From the NCBI RefSeq assembly GCF_036588685.1, contig NC_086376.1, positions 86,159,630 through 86,223,629 of the forward strand: a DNA stretch of 64,000 nucleotides. Direction: 5' to 3'. Made by a program: the position numbers and the translations under genes. Positions 3,181-63,210 of this stretch are shown here, one piece after another. Source of the stretch: Mytilus trossulus. Lineage: Eukaryota. The notes beneath the pieces are model-generated. The model did no database searches, was not told the origin of the DNA, and worked only from the letters and a program-made list of their open reading frames with translations. Every line of letters begins with the position of its first letter. The first letter of the stretch is position 1.

Positions 3181-3360
3181 TGTCCGGAAAATTTTCCGAT
3201 TCGATTCAAAATTATATTTTTTCGACTGGACTGGTACATTTTTTTTACCACTACTGATTTAACTTGCTCCTGTCCGGAAAATTTTCCGATCCGATTGAAT
3301 TTTATATTTTTTCGACTGGAATGGTACAATTTTTTTACGATTACTTATTTACTTTGCTCC
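3181..3360. repeat. 90-bp tandem duplication
   Basis: Units 3181-3270 and 3271-3360; 11 mismatches, no indels. Confidence 0.9.
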
Positions 3361-5659: not shown

Positions 5660-5782
5660 TACAACTTTGTATTTGTTTGGCTTTTATACTTTTTTGATCT
5701 GAGCGTCACTGATAAGTCTTATGTAGACGAAACGCGCGTCTGGCGTATTAAATTATTATAATCCTGGTACCTTTGATAACTA
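5660..5782 (+). mobile_element. Hammerhead repeat copy with a single core mutation
   Basis: gcgtca CTGATAA gtct tatgt agac GAAA cgcgcg TC tggcgt. G8 is changed to A; stem I is fully paired. Confidence 0.8.
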
Positions 5783-7755: not shown

Positions 7756-8077
7756 GTATAGGGGGAGGGTTGAGATCTCACAAACATGTTTAACCCCGCC
7801 GCATTTTTGCGCCTGTCCCAAGTCAGGAGCCTCTGGCCTTTGTTAGTCTTGTATTATTTAAATTTTAGTTTCTTGTGTACAATTTGGAAATTAGTATGGC
7901 GTTCATTATCACTGAACTAGTATATATTTGTTTAGGGGCCAGCTGAAGGACGCCTCCGGGTGCGGGAATTTCTCGCTACATTGAAGACCTGTTGGTGACC
8001 TTCTGCTGTTGTGTTTTTTTATTTTGGTCGGGTTGTTGTCTCTTTGACACATTCCCCATTTCCATTCTCAATTTTAT
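7756..8077 (+). mobile_element. Young 3' fragment of the Penelope-like element with twister core (P5 5' strand truncated)
   Basis: Homologous to 20567-20885. Contains GGGGGAGGG...TAACCCCGCC...GCCTGTCCCAAGTCAGG and ends in ccccatttccattctcaatttta. Confidence 0.85.
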
Positions 8078-9143
8078 TTTTTGTGTTTAGTTTTGAGACA
8101 ATGTCATTAATTTGATTTAAACGACGTCATGATCTTTTTAAAGAATAATTCTATTTCAATTTTAGAATCAGTCATGTTTATAGATCATAATGCTACACAT
8201 TATTATAAAAAATATCATTAAAAAAAATATATTTGGGAATGTTATTCGTCCCAAAGGAAACAAAAGGCTTATACAATGTTCGATATTATGCCCTGGAAAG
8301 TACACCCTTTAGATTAAAGGTATATTTATTACAGAAGTATGTTGAGAAACCCAAAGTACACGTAAATTCTTAAAATGAATATTATCCATTTCTATTATTT
8401 AAGCACCTAATAATATTGATGCACCCTCATAAGAGATAGCTAATCTTACTTGATATAGCCAGTTATTTTCTCATGTAACAATAATCCCTTTGAAATCAGT
8501 ATAAAATAATTGCAGTAAAGGTATCACAACTCTCTTTGGCTAGACTGTATATGAGATGTGTAAATACTAATTACAGAATAATATATCAAATATCATCACA
8601 ATTTCTGTAAAGAAGACGGAAAACGGAACAATAACGTGACCAAAGCATTATATTTATGTTAGTCAAAGTGTTTGGTACCCCCTTAAGAAATAAGTCTCAT
8701 AAATGTTGTATTACAATTTCGATTATTTATTTATGTCTAAAGAGTCTTAATCATGTTAACATCGGATGATCGTAAATTCTGGTGGATGATCAAAGGCACT
8801 AGTCTCGGAAAAAATCATGTCTCTATACTTATAAGCTCGGTTAAGGTACATTTTATAAGATTATTATATTGTAGTGATGTAACCATGTGTTATCAGTACA
8901 ATATGGTTTGTTGTTATATATATAGTAGATTATTTTTTGTTTAACAGTTATTTATTTTTATATTTGGATTTGTAATTAATATCTATGTATATATTTCTCA
9001 CGATAAAACATTTTCATATCCTTTAACACATGGCATGAGTAAAATCTCTTTGTTCTTACTGTGGTATAATCTGAATAATGCACAGCTAAGGTGTGCATTA
9101 ACTACCTCAGATATACTGCACAGTTCAAATCTATTTTTACCTT

Positions 9144-18888: not shown

Positions 18889-19020
18889 ACTGTCAGTTTT
18901 TTTATATAAACTGTCAGTTCTTTTTTATAAACTGTCAGGTTTTACTTTAATCTGTCAGGTTTTACTGTAATCTGTCAGGTTCTTCTATAAACTGTCATGT
19001 TTTGTTACAAACTGTAAGAT
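18889..19020. repeat. ~20-bp minisatellite (actgtcagttt...ataa), 6-7 units
   Basis: ctgtca recurs about every 20 nt. Confidence 0.85.
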
Positions 19021-20799
19021 TTGTAAAATATACTATTTGAACTGTTTACACACAAATGTACTTATATTTTTTGTCAGTCCTTATCTCCCTGCTTTGTAAT
19101 TGTATATCATCGTTACTTTGTATACACTGTATTTGAACGTAACTTTAAAACCAAACATGAAGACGGGAAAATATCATGTTTGACACTAAAACATTGAAGA
19201 ACAAATTTCCTAATGGATCTTTTGCAAAAAAAAAATAAAAATAAATAAATAACTGTTTAATGTCAATTTAGTGGGACAAGTCTATGCTGTTTCTTCTTCA
19301 AAACTTCCAACTTCAATTTCTTTATATTGCTTGTGAGTATGTTAACCTACACCGAATCAAGACATGGATGTCCCTTTTCCAATATCTATAGTACCTTGTC
19401 GATTTATATCAAGAATCTCTTCTTTATATGTATCATTTCATTTTTTAATCATTATATACTGCAAGTTTCCTTTCAGCCTGAAACTTTCAGGTTTGTGGGT
19501 TCTAATCAATCTTATGTGTGATTCTAATGGTTTTATTAAAAAGCAGAAATTTTGAAAAATGAGTTTTAGTTTGCATCAACATATACCTACATACAAAGAA
19601 GAGTATATAATTTAAGAATGCAAAATTTAATGTCTGAATACAAAATACTAACTAAAACGTTTTTCCCTATTCATTTATCAGGCACTCAGCTCGGTTAAAA
19701 TTGCATTTTGAAAATTTGAAGTACGGTTCAAATGAAGTTGAACTTTATGTAATTTGAAATTATTGACGTAAATCTTGACTTTGGTTTATTACTTTAAGCG
19801 ATATAAAAAACAAGAACAGGTTTTGAAACTCGTTTTGATTTATATTAAATAACAGTTGGAATTATATATATAAATCAAACACATGTTTTAGACAGATAAA
19901 ATTGTTTTCATTGTTACAAATATCTTTAAATCAGTTCGTGGAAACTAAGTCTTGACAGACTTAACATGCTTTTTATTGATTTTCAGTAGCTGTTATGACC
20001 TATGGAATACCGTTTAGTATTCTCCGTAGCTTCAGAGCATAGGGATCAATTGATCTGAAGCAACGGTTCATTCGGAGGTTTTTATTGTTTGCGTTAATAA
20101 TATTTTTCTCTTGTCGATTGCCGGAAATTGTTTCCAATTTATCTTGTTAAATATGTTTTAGAGTGTTTGTAAAAACTAAATGTTTTCCCAGATGATTTCA
20201 TTGATAGATAAATCTAAAGAATACTTTCAAGAAGAAAATTTTGTTTTTCCGTCGATGTTGAAAAGTAAACAATTATTTTAAATTCTTAATGTAAAATACC
20301 GAAAACTTTACACGAACCACCATGAGACATTAACGAAACCAGTGACAGAAATTTAGATGCAAACATATGGCGGGAGTTACCAGAGGGATAACCAAGACTA
20401 ATGTGTCGAAGAGCAACCGACAACTTAATTACAAGAAACGTAAAGATAAAATAACGGACTACGAAACACAACACACACAAAACAAGACTGACCAACACGA
20501 CTATTTCTTCAACATATATGTATTTGAAATTTGTACAATATGGCAATGTTAAGTCTGCAACATTTGTAAAATTGAGAAAGGAAATGGTGAATATGTCAAA
20601 GCGACAACCACCCGACCATAGAGCAAACAACAGCCGAAGGCAACCAATGGGTCTTCAATGCAGCGAGAATTCCCGCACCCGTAGGTGTCCTTCAGCTGGC
20701 CCCTAAATTATGCATAATAGTACAGTGATAATGGACGTCATACTAAACTACGAATTATACACAAGAAACTAAAATTTAAAATCATACAAGACTAACAAA

Positions 20800-20890
20800 G
20801 GCCAGAGGCTCCTGACTTGGGACAGGCGCAAAATTGCGGCGGGGTTAAACATGTTTATGAGATCTCAACCCTCCCCCTATACCTCTAGCC
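20800..20890 (-). ncRNA. Type-P5 (circularly permuted) twister ribozyme, intact core
   Basis: Minus strand reads GGCUAGAGG(P5) UAUA GGGG(P2) GAGGG uugagaucucauaaacauguu U^AA CCCC(P2) GCC GCAAUUUUGC(P3) G CCUG(P4) UCCCAAGU CAGG(P4) AG CCUCUGGCC(P5). This matches the twister core UAA-P2-GCC...GCCGGUCCCAAGCCCGG...GAGGG. Predicted cleavage is between 20847 and 20846. Confidence 0.8.
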
Positions 20891-21207
20891 AATGTAGAAA
20901 AGTAAAAGAATAACAATACGCACATTAAAATTCAGTTCAAGAGAAGTCCGAGTCCGATGTCAAAAGATGTAACAAAAGAAAATAAATAAAATGACAATAA
21001 TACATAAATAACAACAGACTACTAGCAGTTAACTGAAATGCCAGCTCCAGACCTCAATTAAACTGATTGAAAGATTATGTCTTCATCATATGAAAATCAG
21101 GTACAATCCCTCCCGTTAGGGGTTTAGTATCATACTATCATAAAATATATGAGAAGAACATAACCCGTGTCATGCCAACTACTGGTTTTTTTTAGAAATA
21201 AATGTGT

Positions 21208-22080
21208 TTAGTTCCGATGCAAAGACCCTATCAGTGAATCAATGTTAAAGCCAAAATATGCAATCTTTAATGACCTGACAACAATATCGTAACTATATCC
21301 CCTTTTAATAAGTCTATTTAAAGGTTTTGTTAGTTTCTGAGGAGAATACTGACATTTTTGTGCTTTATAAAAAATATTTCCATAAAATTTTGGATGTGAA
21401 ATACCTGAACGTATAAGATGTCTGCATGTTGAGTTATATTTACGAATTATTTCCTTATACCGGTGATAAAATTTAGTAAATGTTTTGACCAGTTTGTGAT
21501 ATCGAAAACCCTGGTGTAATAAATTTTCAGTAATACATAAATTTCTCTCGCTAAAATCTAATACGTTGTTACATACACGAGCGAATCGTACAAGTTGAGA
21601 TATATAAACACCATAAGATGATGACAAGGGAAAGTCACCATCTAAAAATGGATAATTAACAATAGGAAATGAAAAATCATCTCTTTTTCATAAATTTTTG
21701 TATTAAGCTGCAGTGGTCATTGTTATCATTAGCTTTATTTAAAGTAAGTTCTACAGGATAAATTTCTGTAGTATACAAACTGGAGTCGTCATTATTGAGA
21801 GCCAATATATCATCCAAATATATAAAAGTATTGTTAAATTTTTGTATCAAATGTTGTTTTGAAGGGTCTTTGCTAATTTTAGTCATAAATTGTAACTCAT
21901 AACAATACAAAAACAGGTCCGCAATAAGTGGTGCACAGTTAGTCCCCAATGGAATTCCAATAACCTGACGATATACGGAATCTCCAAAGCGAACAAAAAT
22001 GTTATCAAGTAAAAATTCAAGCGCATAAATAGTATCAAAGCATGTCCAATTGACATAGTTCTTTTGTGTTTGAATCCTAA
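21208..22080 (-). pseudogene. Penelope-type reverse transcriptase pseudogene
   Basis: ORFs 21677-22096 and 21208-21627 are consecutive RT parts separated by a small deletion and frameshifts near 21680-21710. Confidence 0.88.
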
Positions 22081-23187
22081 AAAAATCAACATTCAATATT
22101 ATCTAAATAAAAAAAGGGACTTGTTTCAATGATGTAATCAAGTTTACACTCTTAGACGATAGGAAATGAGATCATGTAATATGGTATTGACATAACCTTG
22201 AATTGGATGCATGTTAATTATCAGTAATCTAACCATTGATTGCAGTTCTATAGTTTCAGCTTTCTAAGCTCTTAGTTTTATGTAATAAGTTAATTTTCGA
22301 TATTTAATATGTGCATGGTATTGTTCTGTGATTATATTATTCACATAGACATGTAGTCATAAAATTAATAATGTCTTGGGATTACACAAGAGTTTTTAGA
22401 CACAATTATTGATGTGCCATGGTATCGGGTTGTATTGGCGGCTTTTAACATTATCAACGCAAAAGTGACGTAGTTTGTTACACTTTTTATTTTGCTGTTC
22501 ATGTTGTTGAATACTTACTTTCTCATTTAGTGTAAGTTGTTTACATGAAATTTTAACAAAAGAACAAATTTGTTTAATCATTATCCATTTACAGCTCACA
22601 GTGAAATATGTTGACGCGTTTTAATATCTAATAACTAACCGTTTTTAGTGTTTTTTTTACATAAAAGATCAAACGAGCTAGTTTAATAAATAACATTGTT
22701 CTTTTGACATATATATGTGATATCCGTAAAGAAAATTATATTCAAAGCAATACGATTGATTTTCAAGATGATATTGCCATTATTTATGAATCATTAGAAT
22801 CATTTTATCATTAAACATCTCATATTATCATTCTCTACTAGAGAGTTCGATCGACAATAAACAGAGCATAAAGCTAATTTTACAATGATTTTTATAGAAA
22901 TCTTTTCATTTGTGACAGTTCAATATTTCATTTTAGTTTCTTCTATATCTAAATAATTTTCATGATTTGCTTTCCCCATCTCTTAATAGTTCTTTTATCC
23001 GACTTTGTTTTTACAAAGGGAAGATATTGTGATTTGTCTTAAATCACACATATATATCATAGATTATCATTCCCCACCCCACCAGAATATCATCTGGTCA
23101 TATAATGGTAAATGTCGAATTCTGGTGAATAACAGTTACTATTACCTTCACGCAAATTGCTTGAATTGATTGACAAAAGCCCCTTAA

Positions 23188-23906: not shown

Positions 23907-24568
23907 TTAACATCCATCAGCTGTAGTTATCGACCAATGATCTTAATTCCTTCATCGGTTATGTAATATCATCAACTAATAATAGTTGCAGGCAGTTAAT
24001 TTTATCCCGTTAACATTACTGCACTTCGAATCATTTCAATTTATCTCAATGAATTATAGATAAAAGGAAAACAAATACCAGAAATTGTTTGAATTTATTT
24101 ACGACCTTAAATTTACTAATTGTCATTGTTTGTTGTGTACCTTTGATGTTTGATAAGGATCCATCTGATGCCTTCAGATATGCTACAATGAACTTCCTTG
24201 ATTAAATATAATGTAGGTTTGAAACACATAAAGCTACTGTTAAAATATCGTGACATATGTATATACTAATATCCGTGGGAGGGACCAATAAAGTTTTATC
24301 AAGTACACAAGGGACCAAAAAATTGGAAAGCTAAATCATTATAAAACGTTTGAGAGCACAGCAACCAATGGGATATAAACAGAACAGTTGAAAATGTCAA
24401 TATTACCTGAGGGAGATGTAACCCAGTTTGAGTAAAATTGATAAATTTATAATCAGCTTTGGCCAATGATATGACTTTGAGAACGGAATTATTTAAGATT
24501 GCCATCATGAATTACTTTGATTGTTTGGCATTGAGTTGCTTCATGAGATTCATTGATCGAAGGCATAA

Positions 24569-24696
24569 TGCTGCCGCCATAAATTTCTCTGATCATTTGG
24601 TCTATAGTGCTATCGCCGTAAATTTCTTTGATAGATTGTTCTATAGTGCTGCCGGCATAAATTTCTCTGATGATTGGGTCTAAAGCTGCCGCCATC
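24569..24696. repeat. 39-bp tandem repeat, ~3.3 units
   Basis: tgctgccgccataaatttctctgat...tctatag units. The period is a multiple of 3. Confidence 0.85.
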
Positions 24697-26807: not shown

Positions 26808-27393
26808 TGCTCATTTTCGCCATATCTTTCCATGTTTTCTTCAGTTTATGTTCAGGCCTTTATGTTTTTGAAGTGTTCTGATATTTCTATATGAAGATAA
26901 CTTCAAATGCAAATTATTCTTAGCTTGAAAACGTGTTTGTTTTGAGAAAAATCATCTGACAAGTGTGATTAAAGGGTGTTTGAAATTTCCTGATTTTTTT
27001 GTCAACGGGGGACACATATTCGCCGTTTTTGCATATCTATTTTAAACCAAATAACTGCAGCTTTAAACAATATTTATCAAATAAATTTCATTATAGATGA
27101 ATAGCAGACATTTGAAAGGTGTAAAAAAGTAAAATTTTGGGCAATCATTCAAAAAAATAAATATGAAATACTTCTTTGAATTTTTTTTTCATTCAGAAAA
27201 TTGGCAGAAAATCGTTGTCCTTTTTTCGGTCCTTTGCGGTTAGTGCCGAAATTTTGTCTCATTTTCAAAAATAACCATATTTGTTATAAAAATATAATTT
27301 ACCGGCATATTTCTTCCATTTCAACCATCCTTTGGAGTTTTTACACCTCAAAATCATAAAACGGCGAAATTGTGTCCACGGCGAATATGAGCA
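26808..27393. mobile_element. MITE-like element with its right end overlapped by the Penelope fragment
   Basis: TGCTCATTTTCGCC ... GGCGAATATGAGCA inverted termini, plus an internal inverted pair ggacacatattcgccgtttt / aaaacggcgaaattgtgtcc. Confidence 0.55.
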
Positions 27394-27700
27394 TTTTTGC
27401 GCCTGTCCCAAGTCAGGAGCCTCTGGCCTTTGTTAGTCTTGTATTATTTTAATTTTAGTTTCTTGTGTACAATTTGGAAATTAGTATGGCGTTCATTATC
27501 ACTGAACTAGTATATATTTGTTTAGGGGCCAGCTGAAGGACGCCTCCGGGTGCGGGAATTTCTCGCTACATTGAAGACCTGTTGGTGACCTTCTGCTGTT
27601 GTGTTTTTTTGTTGTTTTTTTGTTGTTTTTTTTTGTTTTTTTTTTATTTTGGTCGGGTTGTTGTCTCTTTGACACATTCCCCATTTCCATTCTCAATTTT
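27391..27700 (+). mobile_element. Young 3' fragment of the Penelope-like element
   Basis: Matches 7801-8075 except for one substitution and a ~35 nt T-rich expansion. Confidence 0.88.
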
Positions 27701-36352: not shown

Positions 36353-36608
36353 TAGTTATCAAAGGTACCAGGATTATAATTTAGTATGCCAGACGCGCGT
36401 TTCGTCTACATAAGACTCATCAGTGTCACTTAAATCAAAATATTTTTAAAGCCAAACAAATACAAAGTTGAAGAGCATTGATAAGTTGTGTCTAATATGG
36501 CTAACGTAATATATGCCTGGGATAAGAAAATCCTTAGTTTTTCGAAAAATCCCAGTTTTTATAAACAGGAAATGTTTTAAAATGACCACAGTATAGATAT
36601 TCATGTCA
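36353..36608 (-). mobile_element. Hammerhead-bearing dispersed repeat (retrozyme or pLTR-like monomer)
   Basis: About 250 nt shared with 2661-2909 (+), 5660-5782 (+), 31908-32036 (-), 34318-34445 (-), 40398-40556 (-) and 58168-58396 (-). Confidence 0.8.
36386..36429 (-). ncRNA. Minimal type-I hammerhead ribozyme, intact catalytic core
   Basis: Minus strand reads GUGACA CUGAUGA GUCU uaugu AGAC GAAA CGCGCG UC^ UGGCAU. Both conserved boxes, a 4-bp stem II, a palindromic minimal stem III and a GUC cleavage triplet are present. Stem I has one mismatch. Confidence 0.85.
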
Positions 36609-37094: not shown

Positions 37095-37360
37095 AGATTA
37101 AAATAACAGAAATACTGATCTCCGAGGAAAATTCAAGACGGAAAGTCTCTAACTAAATGGCAAAATCAAAAGCTGTAACTCATCAAACGAATGGATAACA
37201 CATGTCATATTCCTGACTTGATACAGGGATTTTCTAATGTAGAAAATGGTGGATTAAACCTGGATTTATAGCAGCTAAACCTCTCACTTGTATGACAGTT
37301 GCATCAAATTCCATAATATTGACAACGCTGCTTGAACATAACAAACAGACATAATAGGTA
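37095..37360 (-). repeat. Non-autonomous repeat family B carrying a twister-P5 variant (core 37203-37297)
   Basis: UGUCAUA(P5) CAA GUGA GAGGU ... UAA UCC ACC hairpin(P3) CCUG UAUCAAGU CAGG AA UAUGACA(P5). Other copies or fragments at about 2250-2365, 4600-4740, 11205-11345, 13990-14080, 33060-33300, 35347-35560, 38860-39070, 51395-51665 and 57395-57455. Confidence 0.75.
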
Positions 37361-39349
37361 AAGCAACATATATGATTGTTTAGTCCTTGTGCGATATGAT
37401 TGTTCATTCCTGATCCTGATTTTGTTTAAACCGGATCATACCGCTAGTGACGTCACATACACAAGTATAGGGTATAGATTTCCAAAGTGTAATTTGATTG
37501 CCACGTTGTAAGAGTACATTTTAGTAACGAAGTAATATAAAACTAAGGAGATGTAGGATAATAATCAATCAGACGGCTGTCTAATTTAATGAAAATCCCA
37601 AAAATGAAAGGTGAATGAAAAATAAAACATATATTGAATGTAAAATCTATGCAATATATATTTAAGATTCTAATGAATTCATTTACTTTATTCATGTACT
37701 ATATTCCAAAGTTATATAAAATTACACATTGAATTTGTTTTCATTTGACTGTTATATATGAAATTGTTGATCAATCATAATTTTACGAAGACGCTAGAAA
37801 TTATTCCATGCAAACGAGATTTCTACATCTTTAGACCATGTAAATGAAAAAGAAATTAGAGAAATTGATAATATCACCTTTTATCTTGTATTGTTCTGTT
37901 CTTTTGAGCCTTGCTTTAAAAGAATGTATTTAATCAATTTTTGCTTTCGTTTGTTTATTTTTCTTTTGTATTCCTTATGAAATAGTATCTAGACATATGA
38001 TTCAAAGGAAGCAAATGCAAATTTGATTATCGCTCAATATGATTGATCATTACTTAGTCCAGGATATTTCCTTTGAAATATGCTAAAGTGTAGGAAGTTA
38101 TAATGTATGAAACACGAGATTCTCAACAAGAAACACAGATTGAATATTTCCCTTTAGTTTAATATTTTCAATATTTCGGTAAGAAATTCTTGAATATCTT
38201 AATATGAGTAGCTTCGTAGATATATCCAACCGAACATATATATAATGGGTTAATTATTCATCCGTAAAGTAAAGCGCAATAGACAGACCAAAGGACAAAC
38301 TAAAACCTCATACATGTTCCTCTAACCTAAACACCATGTTATAAATATGAAAATGAAAATAAACTTATGTTGGGGTATTTATAAATAGTGTATAATTTAT
38401 GTTTTCTTTTTATTCATAAATGTGCTATTTATTTTAAGTATCTGTTGAAAAACATTTTATTCTTCAAATGTGAGCTGATAAATTCTGTCTATAATTTTTG
38501 CATTTCTTCAGTTTAGTCACGTTAAGTATGTACTCTCTATCTCAAATCGTCAATTTATGATGACAAAAAGACAAAGGGTTCTTAAAATAGAACATCAATT
38601 CCAAATGATATATTTATCGAAATAAAGATTCATTAACGAAGTGTGTTGAATGATGCAGTTAAAAAAAAAAGGATGCTATACTAGGCATCATATTTAATTT
38701 CGAAATTTAGGAAGAATGCGAATTTATATAAACGCACAGTCAATGTGATTTCCCGTGTTGTCATATCTTTTTATATGCAATTTAGTCTTTGTTTGTTGAC
38801 ATTGATGTCTATGTGATTTCCTCACACACTATTGTCAATACAAAAAAATTATTTGCTTCTGTAATACCTATGAGAGGTTCAGCGCGCTATAGCACCAGGA
38901 ACTACATGTATCCATAATTTTCTATGGAGAATATCCCTTTATCAAGTTAAAACTTTGACAGTAGTTTTTCATTCGTTTTAGGTGTTTTGGTTTTTGATTT
39001 GTCCATTTGATGAACAACTTTTCGTTTTGAACTTTCCATGGCGTTAGGATTTTTTTGTCATTTTACTTTTTATTGCCGTGTTTGGTTGTAATACAATGAT
39101 ATGAGTATATCATTCCTCATTGCCACAAGCTTATAATTGAATTTTTATAATCTGATGAATAAAGGCGAAAGTAGTTAACCGAATAATGTTTAATCTCATA
39201 TATCAAATAAGAAGACATAAATAAAGGTACGAAACAAAAACGGAGGGTATCGAATGAACTTCAGAAGAAGAGAGACCACTATTGATAATCTTTAGCCTGT
39301 TTAATGCTCTGATAATCCAAAAATAATAATAACGCTTATCATGATTATA

Positions 39350-39720
39350 CAATTGAGAATGGAAATGAAAACCCGACCATAGAAAAGACCACAGCAGAAT
39401 ATCAGCAACAGAGTTTAAATGCAGCGAGAAACTCCCAACCCTGAATGCGTCCATCAGCTGACCCTTAAACAAATATCTATACCTGTTCACCAGTAACAAA
39501 AATACACAAGAAACTAAAATTAAAAATTAAAAATTATACAAGACTTACAAAGGCTAGAGGCTGCTGACTTGGGGCAAGTGCAAAAATGCGGCGGGGTTAA
39601 ATATGTTTTTTGAAATATCAACCCTCCCCTTATACATCTAGCCAATGTAGAAAGTAAACGCATAACAATACGCGTAGTAAAATTCAGTTCCTGATAAGTC
39701 CGAGTCCGATGTCAGAAGAG
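39350..39720 (-). mobile_element. Older 3' fragment of the Penelope-like element with degenerate twister (39552-39643)
   Basis: Colinear with 20570-20965. P2, P3 and P5 are largely retained; P4 is mutated. Confidence 0.8.
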
Positions 39721-40397: not shown

Positions 40398-40556
40398 TAG
40401 TTATCAAAGTTACCAGGATCATAATTCAGTATGCTTTCCGCGCGTTTCATCTACATAAAAGGCATTAGTGACGCTCAGATCATAATATTTATAAAGTCAA
40501 ACAAGAACAAAGTGAAAGAGCATTGGGGACCAAAAACTCCAAAAAGTTTTGACAAA
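40398..40556 (-). mobile_element. Degenerate hammerhead repeat copy
   Basis: agttatcaaagttaccagga...cgcgcgtttcatctacataaaaggcattagtgacgctcagatc, colinear with 36353-36480. Confidence 0.7.
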
Positions 40557-47486: not shown

Positions 47487-47650
47487 CAAGAGATCAAGAG
47501 AGATCTATCATATACATGCAAGAGATCAAGAGAGATCTATCATATTCATGCTCACATCAAAGTGATCTATAATACATGCTCACATCAAAGTGATAGTATA
47601 CATGCTCACATCAAAGTGATCTATAATACATGCTCACATCAAAGTGATAT
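47487..47650. repeat. Tandem minisatellites inside the YR retrotransposon
   Basis: caagagatcaagagagatctatcata x2, then catgctcacatcaaagtgat(ctataata) x4. Further duplications at 47799-47835 and 48085-48165. Confidence 0.8.
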
Positions 47651-62224: not shown

Positions 62225-63210
62225 AAAGAGAATCGAAAGATACCAGACAGTCAAAGTCATAAATCGGAAATTAACTGACAACGCCATGACTAAAAATGAA
62301 AAAGACAAACAGACAAACACTCCCCATTTCCATTCTCAATTTTATAAATAATAGTTCACATAACACAACATAGAAAACTTAAGAATAAGCAATAGGAACC
62401 CCTCATTAAAAACTGGGGTTATATCAGGTGCTCCGGAAGGGTAAACAGATCCTGCTCCACATTTAGCACAAGTCGTGTTGCTCGTGTCATAACACACCTG
62501 GGATGGTGTTCTCGAAAGTATCCCAAGATTCGTCCTAAGACACATCTTAGACCAATTTTAGGATGGACTTAAGATCATCTTAGGACCCTCTTAAGTTGTT
62601 TCTCGAAGCTTTCTTAGACGAATCTTATGTTAGGATGTCCTAAAAATATACTAAGTCGAAATTTTAAATCGTTAAAGTATTTTTTTTATAAAACGTTTAT
62701 TTATGACGAAACTATTTAATAAAATTGTTTACGAATTTTATAACAACAAGTATAGAATGAAAGGCATAATTACCAATGTAATTATATCAAAAAGGATTGC
62801 AATTTAAACTAGAAAACAATTTGTTTTGAAATGAGAATAACACTTTTAGTGTAATCTTATCGTGAAACACGAAGTCCAAAGTTTAAAATCGTGCACAATT
62901 TATTTATATACGAGTTAATAACCGATGGTGCGTTTAATTTCATGTCTAATTCATGTAAAATATTGAGCAAAAAGCGAAATCCAAACTTTATTACACTAGG
63001 ATGAAGATAGGATGATCTTAAGACACCTAATTGGGTGTCCTAAAGTTAGGACGAAAAATGAGATATATCATAAGTTAAGAAAGCTTCGAGAACACGACTT
63101 ATTGCAAAGACTTGTCATAAAATAGACTTAGGACATGTCATAATCCTAAGATAGCTTCGAGAACACCACCCCAGCTGGTAAAAAGTCTTATTCAGTAGGT
63201 CACATTATGA
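62225..63210 (-). repeat. Repeat family D (GGAGCAGG...CCCTTCCGGAGCACC motif), interrupted by a Penelope 3' tip and a MITE
   Basis: Homologous to 11441-11635, 29135-29375, 44410-44575 (all -) and 57075-57305 (+). Common 3' end resembles ggtatctttcgtccctctttt. Confidence 0.75.
62498..63174. mobile_element. MITE with CTGGGRTGGTGTTCTCGAA TIRs (PIF/Harbinger-like)
   Basis: Terminal inverted repeats, an internal second inverted pair (ttctcgaagctttctt) and many ctaag/ttagg subrepeats. It splits a family D copy. Confidence 0.75.

Follow-up and report, generated by a model that had tools for sequence, protein, structure and literature searches.

Two palindromes stand in place of helix P1 in a predicted type-P5 twister of a mussel Naiad retrotransposon and may pair two RNA copies

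Positions 20,800 to 20,890 of a 64,000-nucleotide stretch of the Mytilus trossulus genome (hereafter the window) carry a fold that resembles a twister ribozyme, with two short self-complementary words where helix P1 is expected. This raises the question of what the words do: whether they pair two copies of the RNA, and whether such pairing would bear on self-cleavage. The initial annotation had placed two palindromes in place of P1 at 20846..20868 and proposed a dimer-activated ribozyme. We confirmed both words on the minus strand, where no canonical P1 is possible. The features of the locus are:

20567..22084, minus strand: 5'-truncated family-A copy of a Naiad Penelope-like element, with a C-terminal RT fragment, 3' UTR/pLTR and fixed 3' end
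21087..21151, minus strand: SECIS-like hairpin in the 3' UTR (RF00031, 31.1 bits, E 0.038; cut-off 35)
20881..20890, minus strand: 5' strand of P5, pairing with 20800-20809 as a 10-bp stem in the predicted fold
20874..20877, minus strand: P2 strand GGGG, pairing with CCCC at 20841-20844 in the Rfam Twister-P5 alignment
20869..20873, minus strand: GAGGG, a strand of pseudoknot T2, with the putative general-base G assigned by analogy
20858..20867, minus strand: palindrome 1, UGAGAUCUCA (predicted self-duplex -15.6 kcal/mol, hairpin 0.0)
20847..20856, minus strand: palindrome 2, AAACAUGUUU (predicted self-duplex -8.6 kcal/mol, hairpin 0.0)
20845..20847, minus strand: predicted cleavage site U/AA, between 20847 and 20846, aligned to the UAA of RF02684
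20827..20840, minus strand: T1 strand GC and P3 hairpin (Rfam alignment, predicted fold)
20810..20826, minus strand: P4 (CCUG/CAGG), loop L4 UCCCAAGU and a conserved A (Rfam and subfamily alignments)
20800..20809, minus strand: 3' strand of P5 (predicted fold)

Read along the minus strand, the order is P5, GGGG, GAGGG, U, UGAGAUCUCA, U, AAACAUGUUU, AA, CCCC, GC and the P3 hairpin, followed by CCUG, UCCCAAGU, CAGG, A and the second P5 strand (20800-20809). The insert between GAGGG and AA thus consists of two palindromes, each preceded by U, and the final U of palindrome 2 is the predicted N-1 base. The fold is present in five families (A-E) of the genome, and families B-E have a P5 stem at the equivalent place, built from other sequences.

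The sole Rfam match reported for a 161-nt stretch was Twister-P5 (RF02684, full model), with 23.4 bits and E 0.0033, below the Rfam gathering cut-off of 37.6; it appeared with this stretch alone, and a search of the whole 64-kb window returned no twister match. An RF02684 scan of the genome gave no matches, and its positive controls were likewise unmatched. In the Rfam alignment, a 21-nt insert occupies the position of P1. Within one molecule P1 is impossible, since both facing pairs are U/U, and on its own the 22-nt insert has a predicted fold of 0.0 kcal/mol. The conserved L1 and L4 nucleotides (GAG.G, NAA, U.C.AAG) are present, and 11 natural subfamily copies share identical core letters, with stems that covary. 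For T2, P2 and P4, 93.9% of 99 cells are paired and 10 cells are changed on both sides; this level of pairing was reached by none of 500 shuffles, in a test that the relatedness of the sequences inflates. T2 covaries as GGG/CCC, GGU/ACC and AGG/CCU, one P2 pair is changed between G-C and A-U on both sides, and P4 is altered to ACCG/CGGU in clam Naiads. Covariation of T1 was judged by eye, as MAFFT shifted this element, whereas T2, P2 and P4 were counted; T1 reads GC/GU in families A, D and E, AC/GU in B and C, and CC/GG in clam Naiads. We infer that the fold is a type-P5 twister without P1, predicted to self-cleave. As an intramolecular P1 is absent, we file it as a P1-less twister-like variant and not as a member of RF02684.

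Across families, the first word is UGAGAUCUCA in A, UAGCUAGCUA or UAGCGCUA in B, UGGCAUGCCA in C, GGGAUCCC in D, and UGGGCCCA, UGGAUCCA or UGGUACCA in E. In the published Naiad consensuses Bpla (GGCGCC), Mphi (UUGAUGCAUCAA), Scon (UGGAGCGCUCCA) and Mmer (GGUGCGCACC), as available from PMC8557442, the first words are likewise perfect palindromes, with a second word at the equivalent place. The second word is AACAUGUU in families A and D and AACGUU in E. In B and C it is AACC-A-GGUU, with one unpaired centre base; the initial annotation had described a quasi-palindrome for family B. The same source gives AACC-A-GGUU for Scon, AACC-U-GGUU for Mphi and AACCGGUU for Mmer, and AAUC-N-GAUU is shared by Bpla and one copy of the present genome (locus L056). 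The arm of the second word stops one base short of N-1, in register with the 5' strand of P1, and the N-1 base itself varies (U, C, A). As a measure of chance, 136 of the 63,978 22-mers in the window contain two such palindromes (arms of at least 4), the copies themselves being counted among them, and shuffling the insert of each family 20,000 times yields 4-63 such cases. Of the 2885 family-E places, the first 100 were scored by eye: the centre of the first word is GC in 55, AT in 36, TA in 7 and GT in 2, giving a symmetric centre (GC, AT or TA) in 98 of 100; these are counts of copies and not of independent events. Three symmetric centres have spread in this family, and no asymmetric one. 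The P3 hairpin loops are ordinary and mostly asymmetric. The sequence of the palindromes turns over, and their symmetry is kept to the centre; conservation of palindromy across family consensuses was the check set beforehand, and it came out positive, with differing sequences. The covariation at the centre points to RNA-RNA pairing as the conserved feature.

Judged from its sequence, the host is a Naiad Penelope-like retrotransposon, and the predicted twister lies in its 3' pseudo-LTR (pLTR). The initial annotation had proposed a Penelope-like pLTR without naming Naiads, and this host was borne out by one tandem (locus L031) in which an 888-nt pLTR precedes a 4035-nt unit, so that 4035 nt separate its two predicted ribozymes. 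The family-A copy at 20567..22084 is 93% identical to this unit over 1557 nt, and its RT match stops 337 nt upstream of GAGGG. The L031 ORF contains an N-terminal GIY-YIG domain, a KR-rich block (RKNRSHGRRK), CxC (SCNCS), DKA (PADKAAN) and RT, with in-frame UGA codons. The position of GIY-YIG N-terminal to RT was read from translations of L031 and of a second locus, L127; Pfam returned no families at E 0.01 for both ORF pieces examined. The features of this ORF are marks by which Craig et al. 2021 (PMC8557442, section 6) define Naiads, and three further Naiad marks are found here: a partial pLTR tandem, 5' truncation and a size of 3.4-4.4 kb. Thirty family-A loci have scattered 5' ends and a common 3' end ~310 nt past the motif start, and ~280-290 nt separate the twister from the end of the element. 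Family E is likewise represented by a full Naiad (L127), family D is tied weakly to a Naiad ORF by one locus (L130), and none of the family-C loci examined showed such a link. Families A and E have in-frame UGA at cysteine-like positions, A with a SECIS-like hairpin (L031, L032, L127), and from these sequences look like selenoprotein Naiads, here in a mussel; the available text of PMC8557442 lists this type for clams and spiders. The same text describes the Naiad clade as being without canonical hammerheads, and the word twister is absent from its main text.

Several neighbouring arrangements were also seen. At L127:514-4700, a full family-E Naiad directly follows a family-A 3' end on the same strand, forming a mixed tandem with two different twisters ~4.1 kb apart. 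Two family-E twisters at L132:2191 and 2664 (minus strand) are in direct tandem, 473 nt apart, and offer a natural test substrate. Gag- and protease-like ORFs of an LTR retrotransposon lie beside a Naiad copy at L033:450-3500 (minus strand), and a minus-strand ORF at L035:9363-9998 (plus coordinates) encodes 212 residues that by eye resemble a tyrosine recombinase. The window also holds short tandem repeats at 18923-19022, 24493-24685, 47515-47649 and 3181-3360, with units of 20, 39, 54 and 90 nt.

Exact-pattern searches of the genome found 5561 places for family A, 4002 for B plus C, and 3498 for E; family D was found by a pattern with overlapping matches, and its count is not a copy number. 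A pattern derived from decayed copies gave 4 matches, and a DNA search of the genome gave none, in a search that probably skips very common words. Other copies in the window are:

7756..8079, plus strand: second family-A copy, 5'-truncated before the 5' strand of P5, with palindromes at 7771-7780 and 7782-7791
27391..27700, plus strand: family-A copy that begins inside P3, without palindromes
39498..39719, minus strand: decayed family-A copy
37211..37290, minus strand: decayed family-B twister (Naiad_Mgal type)
38874..38900, plus strand: family-B-like 5' half with AGCGCGCU at 38881-38888, 3' core absent

Both words of the copy at 7771-7791, cited in the initial annotation, are identical to those at 20847-20867. 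Its two family-B examples fared less well: AGCGCGCU is present at 38881-38888, but the fragment that holds it lacks the 3' half of the twister core, and UAGC(U)GCUA (~37269-37277, minus strand), also present, has decayed from UAGCUAGCUA, the word of the family.

Among the published Naiad consensuses in the supplement of PMC8557442, Mgal, Bpla, Mphi, Scon and Mmer terminate, by eye, in the twister fold (the names Mgal and Bpla being assigned from file order), and family B matches the 3' end of Naiad_Mgal. These are 5 of 54 consensuses, all bivalve, found with six eight-letter words that diverged or line-broken matches would escape. In these consensuses, the position of the motif is fixed from mussels to clams.

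Across families, predicted hairpins of either word have energies of 0 to -1.1 kcal/mol, and self-duplexes are predicted at -10.3 to -19.2 kcal/mol (first word) and -5.9 to -8.8 kcal/mol (second word). With no predicted hairpin for either word and stable self-duplexes, the palindromes probably pair one RNA copy with another. For each of the 6 copies folded, the minimum-energy structure of the monomer zips away the GAGGN strand of T2 and occludes the core. With pseudoknots left out, freeing the monomer core is predicted to cost 1.1-5.2 kcal/mol, and a strand-swapped, core-free dimer is predicted to lie 2.8-10.2 kcal/mol below two monomers. These energies describe secondary structure without T1 and T2, which could outweigh a misfold of 1-5 kcal/mol. 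The dimer gain was reached by 0, 0, 4, 3, 0 and 1 of 40 shuffled inserts for the six copies. In the unconstrained predicted dimer, the core is still zipped. When palindrome 1 was blocked, palindrome 2 yielded a dimer gain in only 3 of 6 copies; the family-E gain stemmed from P3, and family C showed none.

We propose that the palindromes that replace P1 in the Naiad P5 twister pair two RNA copies and thereby favour the active fold, a reading that we place just short of probable. Palindrome 1 would nucleate the pairing, either between the two pLTRs of a tandem transcript or between two RNAs within one particle. The self-duplex of palindrome 2 could then supply P1 in trans, since its arm stops at the usual end of the 5' strand of P1. 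The monomer would have its T2 strand zipped away, and the dimer would favour a free core. Were both duplexes to form at once, with both helices fully wound and the cores closed, the resulting ring would contain a topological link. The twister might thus do the work of the palindromic, dimer-acting hammerhead of other Penelope-like elements: it would cleave tandem precursors into units of single length, perhaps as a step towards circular forms. That cleavage is favoured by or dependent on dimer pairing is a slightly more doubtful part of the proposal, because twisters can do without P1, few copies stand in direct tandem and the cut is not where insertions begin.

Dispensability of P1 had been offered in the initial annotation as support for dimer activation, but it points the other way. 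Twisters without P1 cleave at near wild-type rate in the available text of PMC5408937, and in that of a large twister screen P1 defects do not matter (PMC11662667); a P1-less monomer may therefore cleave by itself. The strongest rival builds on this: the twister would cleave as a monomer, like the mini-twister, and the palindromes would be a separate RNA dimerisation signal that gathers a pair of Naiad RNAs, or 3' ends just left by cleavage, in a single particle and so allows template jumping, a possible source of the tandem and inverted insertions of Penelope-like elements. Covariation of the palindromes shows pairing and not gating, and the palindromes end exactly at the predicted cut. A 10-nt palindrome together with a second, short one is also found in another Naiad 3' motif that is not a twister, in line with a pairing function independent of twister catalysis, and a Penelope-like element protein is a predicted dimer in the available text of PMC11167929. 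Among the first 100 family-A places, by eye, opposite-strand neighbours within 3.5 kb form 3 pairs versus 1 direct tandem. A same-strand pair lying within 5 kb was seen once in the first 100 family-A places listed and once in the first 100 of family E, again by eye; such rare tandems may be source elements. Against this rival, the palindromes lie inside the active-site junction, palindrome 2 is in the register of P1, and the monomer has a predicted misfold that covers the T2 strand. We regard it as possible but rather doubtful.

We also considered that cleavage sets the 5' end of insertions, as in the Schistosoma T-variants. This is unsupported, as the 5' ends do not cluster at the cut site: they fall within 3 nt of the predicted cut at 2 of 30 family-E loci, and at none of the family-A places listed, by eye. 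One raw RNA-seq run of fragmented RNA (5235 reads, both strands) showed no pile-up of read ends, which at a dispersed repeat is compatible with cleavage as well as with its absence. For Poseidon_Ac, the available text of PMC11167929 reports that hammerhead cleavage is not needed for insertion in vitro, that uncut RNA is the main substrate and that the hammerhead is protein-assisted.

The palindromes could instead be kept at the level of DNA or cDNA, either because strand switching corrects quasi-palindromes or because a symmetric protein binds them, with no RNA role. Inter-strand template switching can perfect palindromes, centre included, and 5'-truncated family-E ends lie within or next to palindrome 2 at 5 of 30 loci. 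However, the palindrome sequence is not conserved, which speaks against a binding site. Across the element, 22 8-bp palindromes, other-or-same, are dispersed and for the most part AT-rich. The P3 loops are mostly asymmetric, and the two palindromes keep their position from mussels to clams in the consensuses of PMC8557442. Retention at the DNA level is improbable. Less probable still is that the two words form small hairpins of a protein-stabilised, intramolecular three-way junction that replaces P1: a triloop could be closed by second words of odd length (AACC-A-GGUU), and a marginal hairpin is predicted for palindrome 1 in families C and D (-0.8 to -1.1 kcal/mol), but AAACGUUU and UGGAUCCA form no useful hairpin (0.0 kcal/mol), and a hairpin needs no self-complementary loop, yet the centres covary. 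That the fold is a catalytically dead, protein-binding structure is very unlikely, for although its RF02684 score is under the Rfam cut-off and neither genome nor reads carry a cleavage footprint, the catalytic-core positions are invariant in the 11 subfamily copies while the stems covary.

The second palindromic Naiad motif is a structured 3' element with crossing stems, found in the window at ~62370-62510 (minus strand), at L097:1780-1930 (plus strand), and at loci L007, L010 and L078. Its 10-nt palindrome is CCACAUGUGG in the window, and the short second one is UCCGGA. In the available sequences of PMC8557442 the motif recurs in the Naiads CGi, Sglo, Olur, Tgra and Pmar, with other palindromes (UGACCGGUCA, UAGCUAGCUA, UUGCAUGCAA; CCUAGG, CCAUGG). 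It has no Rfam match at E 10 and is a candidate for another ribozyme or dimer signal.

Type-I hammerheads with CGCGCG, which the initial annotation had invoked as an analogy, do occur in the window, at 5703-5746 (plus strand), 36386-36429 (minus strand) and 40398-40525, under Rfam's cut-off. We take them to be fragments of mussel retrozymes, probably, rather than parts of a pLTR. A cloned mussel retrozyme repeat self-cleaved during transcription in the available account of PMC7229834, which makes the hammerheads of the window a weak analogy for dimer gating.

Naiads had served as evidence that Penelope-like elements can manage without ribozymes, and Craig et al. suggest, in the available text of PMC8557442, that hammerheads may simply parasitise these elements. 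A twister fold at the place of the hammerhead, in thousands of copies per family and in both mussels and clams, weakens the argument for dispensability in bivalve Naiads. The GC, AT and TA variants of family E provide natural matched and mismatched partners for the dimer question.

The Naiads of Craig et al. 2021 share with the present elements GIY-YIG, CxC, DKA, the pLTR tandem, a length of ~4 kb, and UGA with a SECIS-like hairpin (PMC8557442, as available). Twister-P5 (RF02684) and the Naiad fold are alike in element order, GAG-G, UAA, GC, P4 with its UCCCAAG-type loop and the P5 end, but the Naiad fold has two palindromes instead of the P1 hairpin and an added P3 hairpin. The mini-twister (PMC5408937) and the Schistosoma T-variants in Perere-3 (PMC8501958), as far as the available texts describe them, likewise have a weak P1 or none and are tied to retrotransposons, and truncated twisters in RTE elements are noted as in preparation in the available text of PMC7761336. 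The T-variants are open at P1 and lie at the 5' end of an APE-RT non-LTR element whose target-site duplication abuts the cut; the Naiad twister, by contrast, is of type P5, lies in the 3' pLTR and has no 5' ends at the cut. The available text on the T-variants (PMC8501958) mentions neither palindrome nor dimer, the main text of the twister screen PMC11662667 does not mention Mytilus, and a literature search with subscription journals mostly outside its reach found no publication joining Naiads and twisters.

The closest functional parallel is the minimal type-I hammerhead of the pLTRs of Penelope-like elements, which sits at an equal place in the element and has a palindrome for the helix beside the cut; dimer action through this palindromic helix III has been proposed and shown, in the available texts of PMC4209133 and PMC6765202. 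A conserved palindrome replacing the helix beside the cut, the mark of a dimer-acting ribozyme, is found in the Naiad twister too. The hammerhead is, however, an unrelated ribozyme class with one palindrome where the Naiad twister has two (PMC4209133, PMC6765202), and in the texts available hammerheads need helix III whereas twisters can dispense with P1. We suggest, tentatively, that bivalve Naiads have replaced the hammerhead by a first natural dimer-gated twister, by convergent palindrome-for-helix logic; that a Naiad sister group has a further double-palindrome RNA, maybe a ribozyme; and that RNA dimerisation is a class-independent step of Penelope-type retrotransposition.
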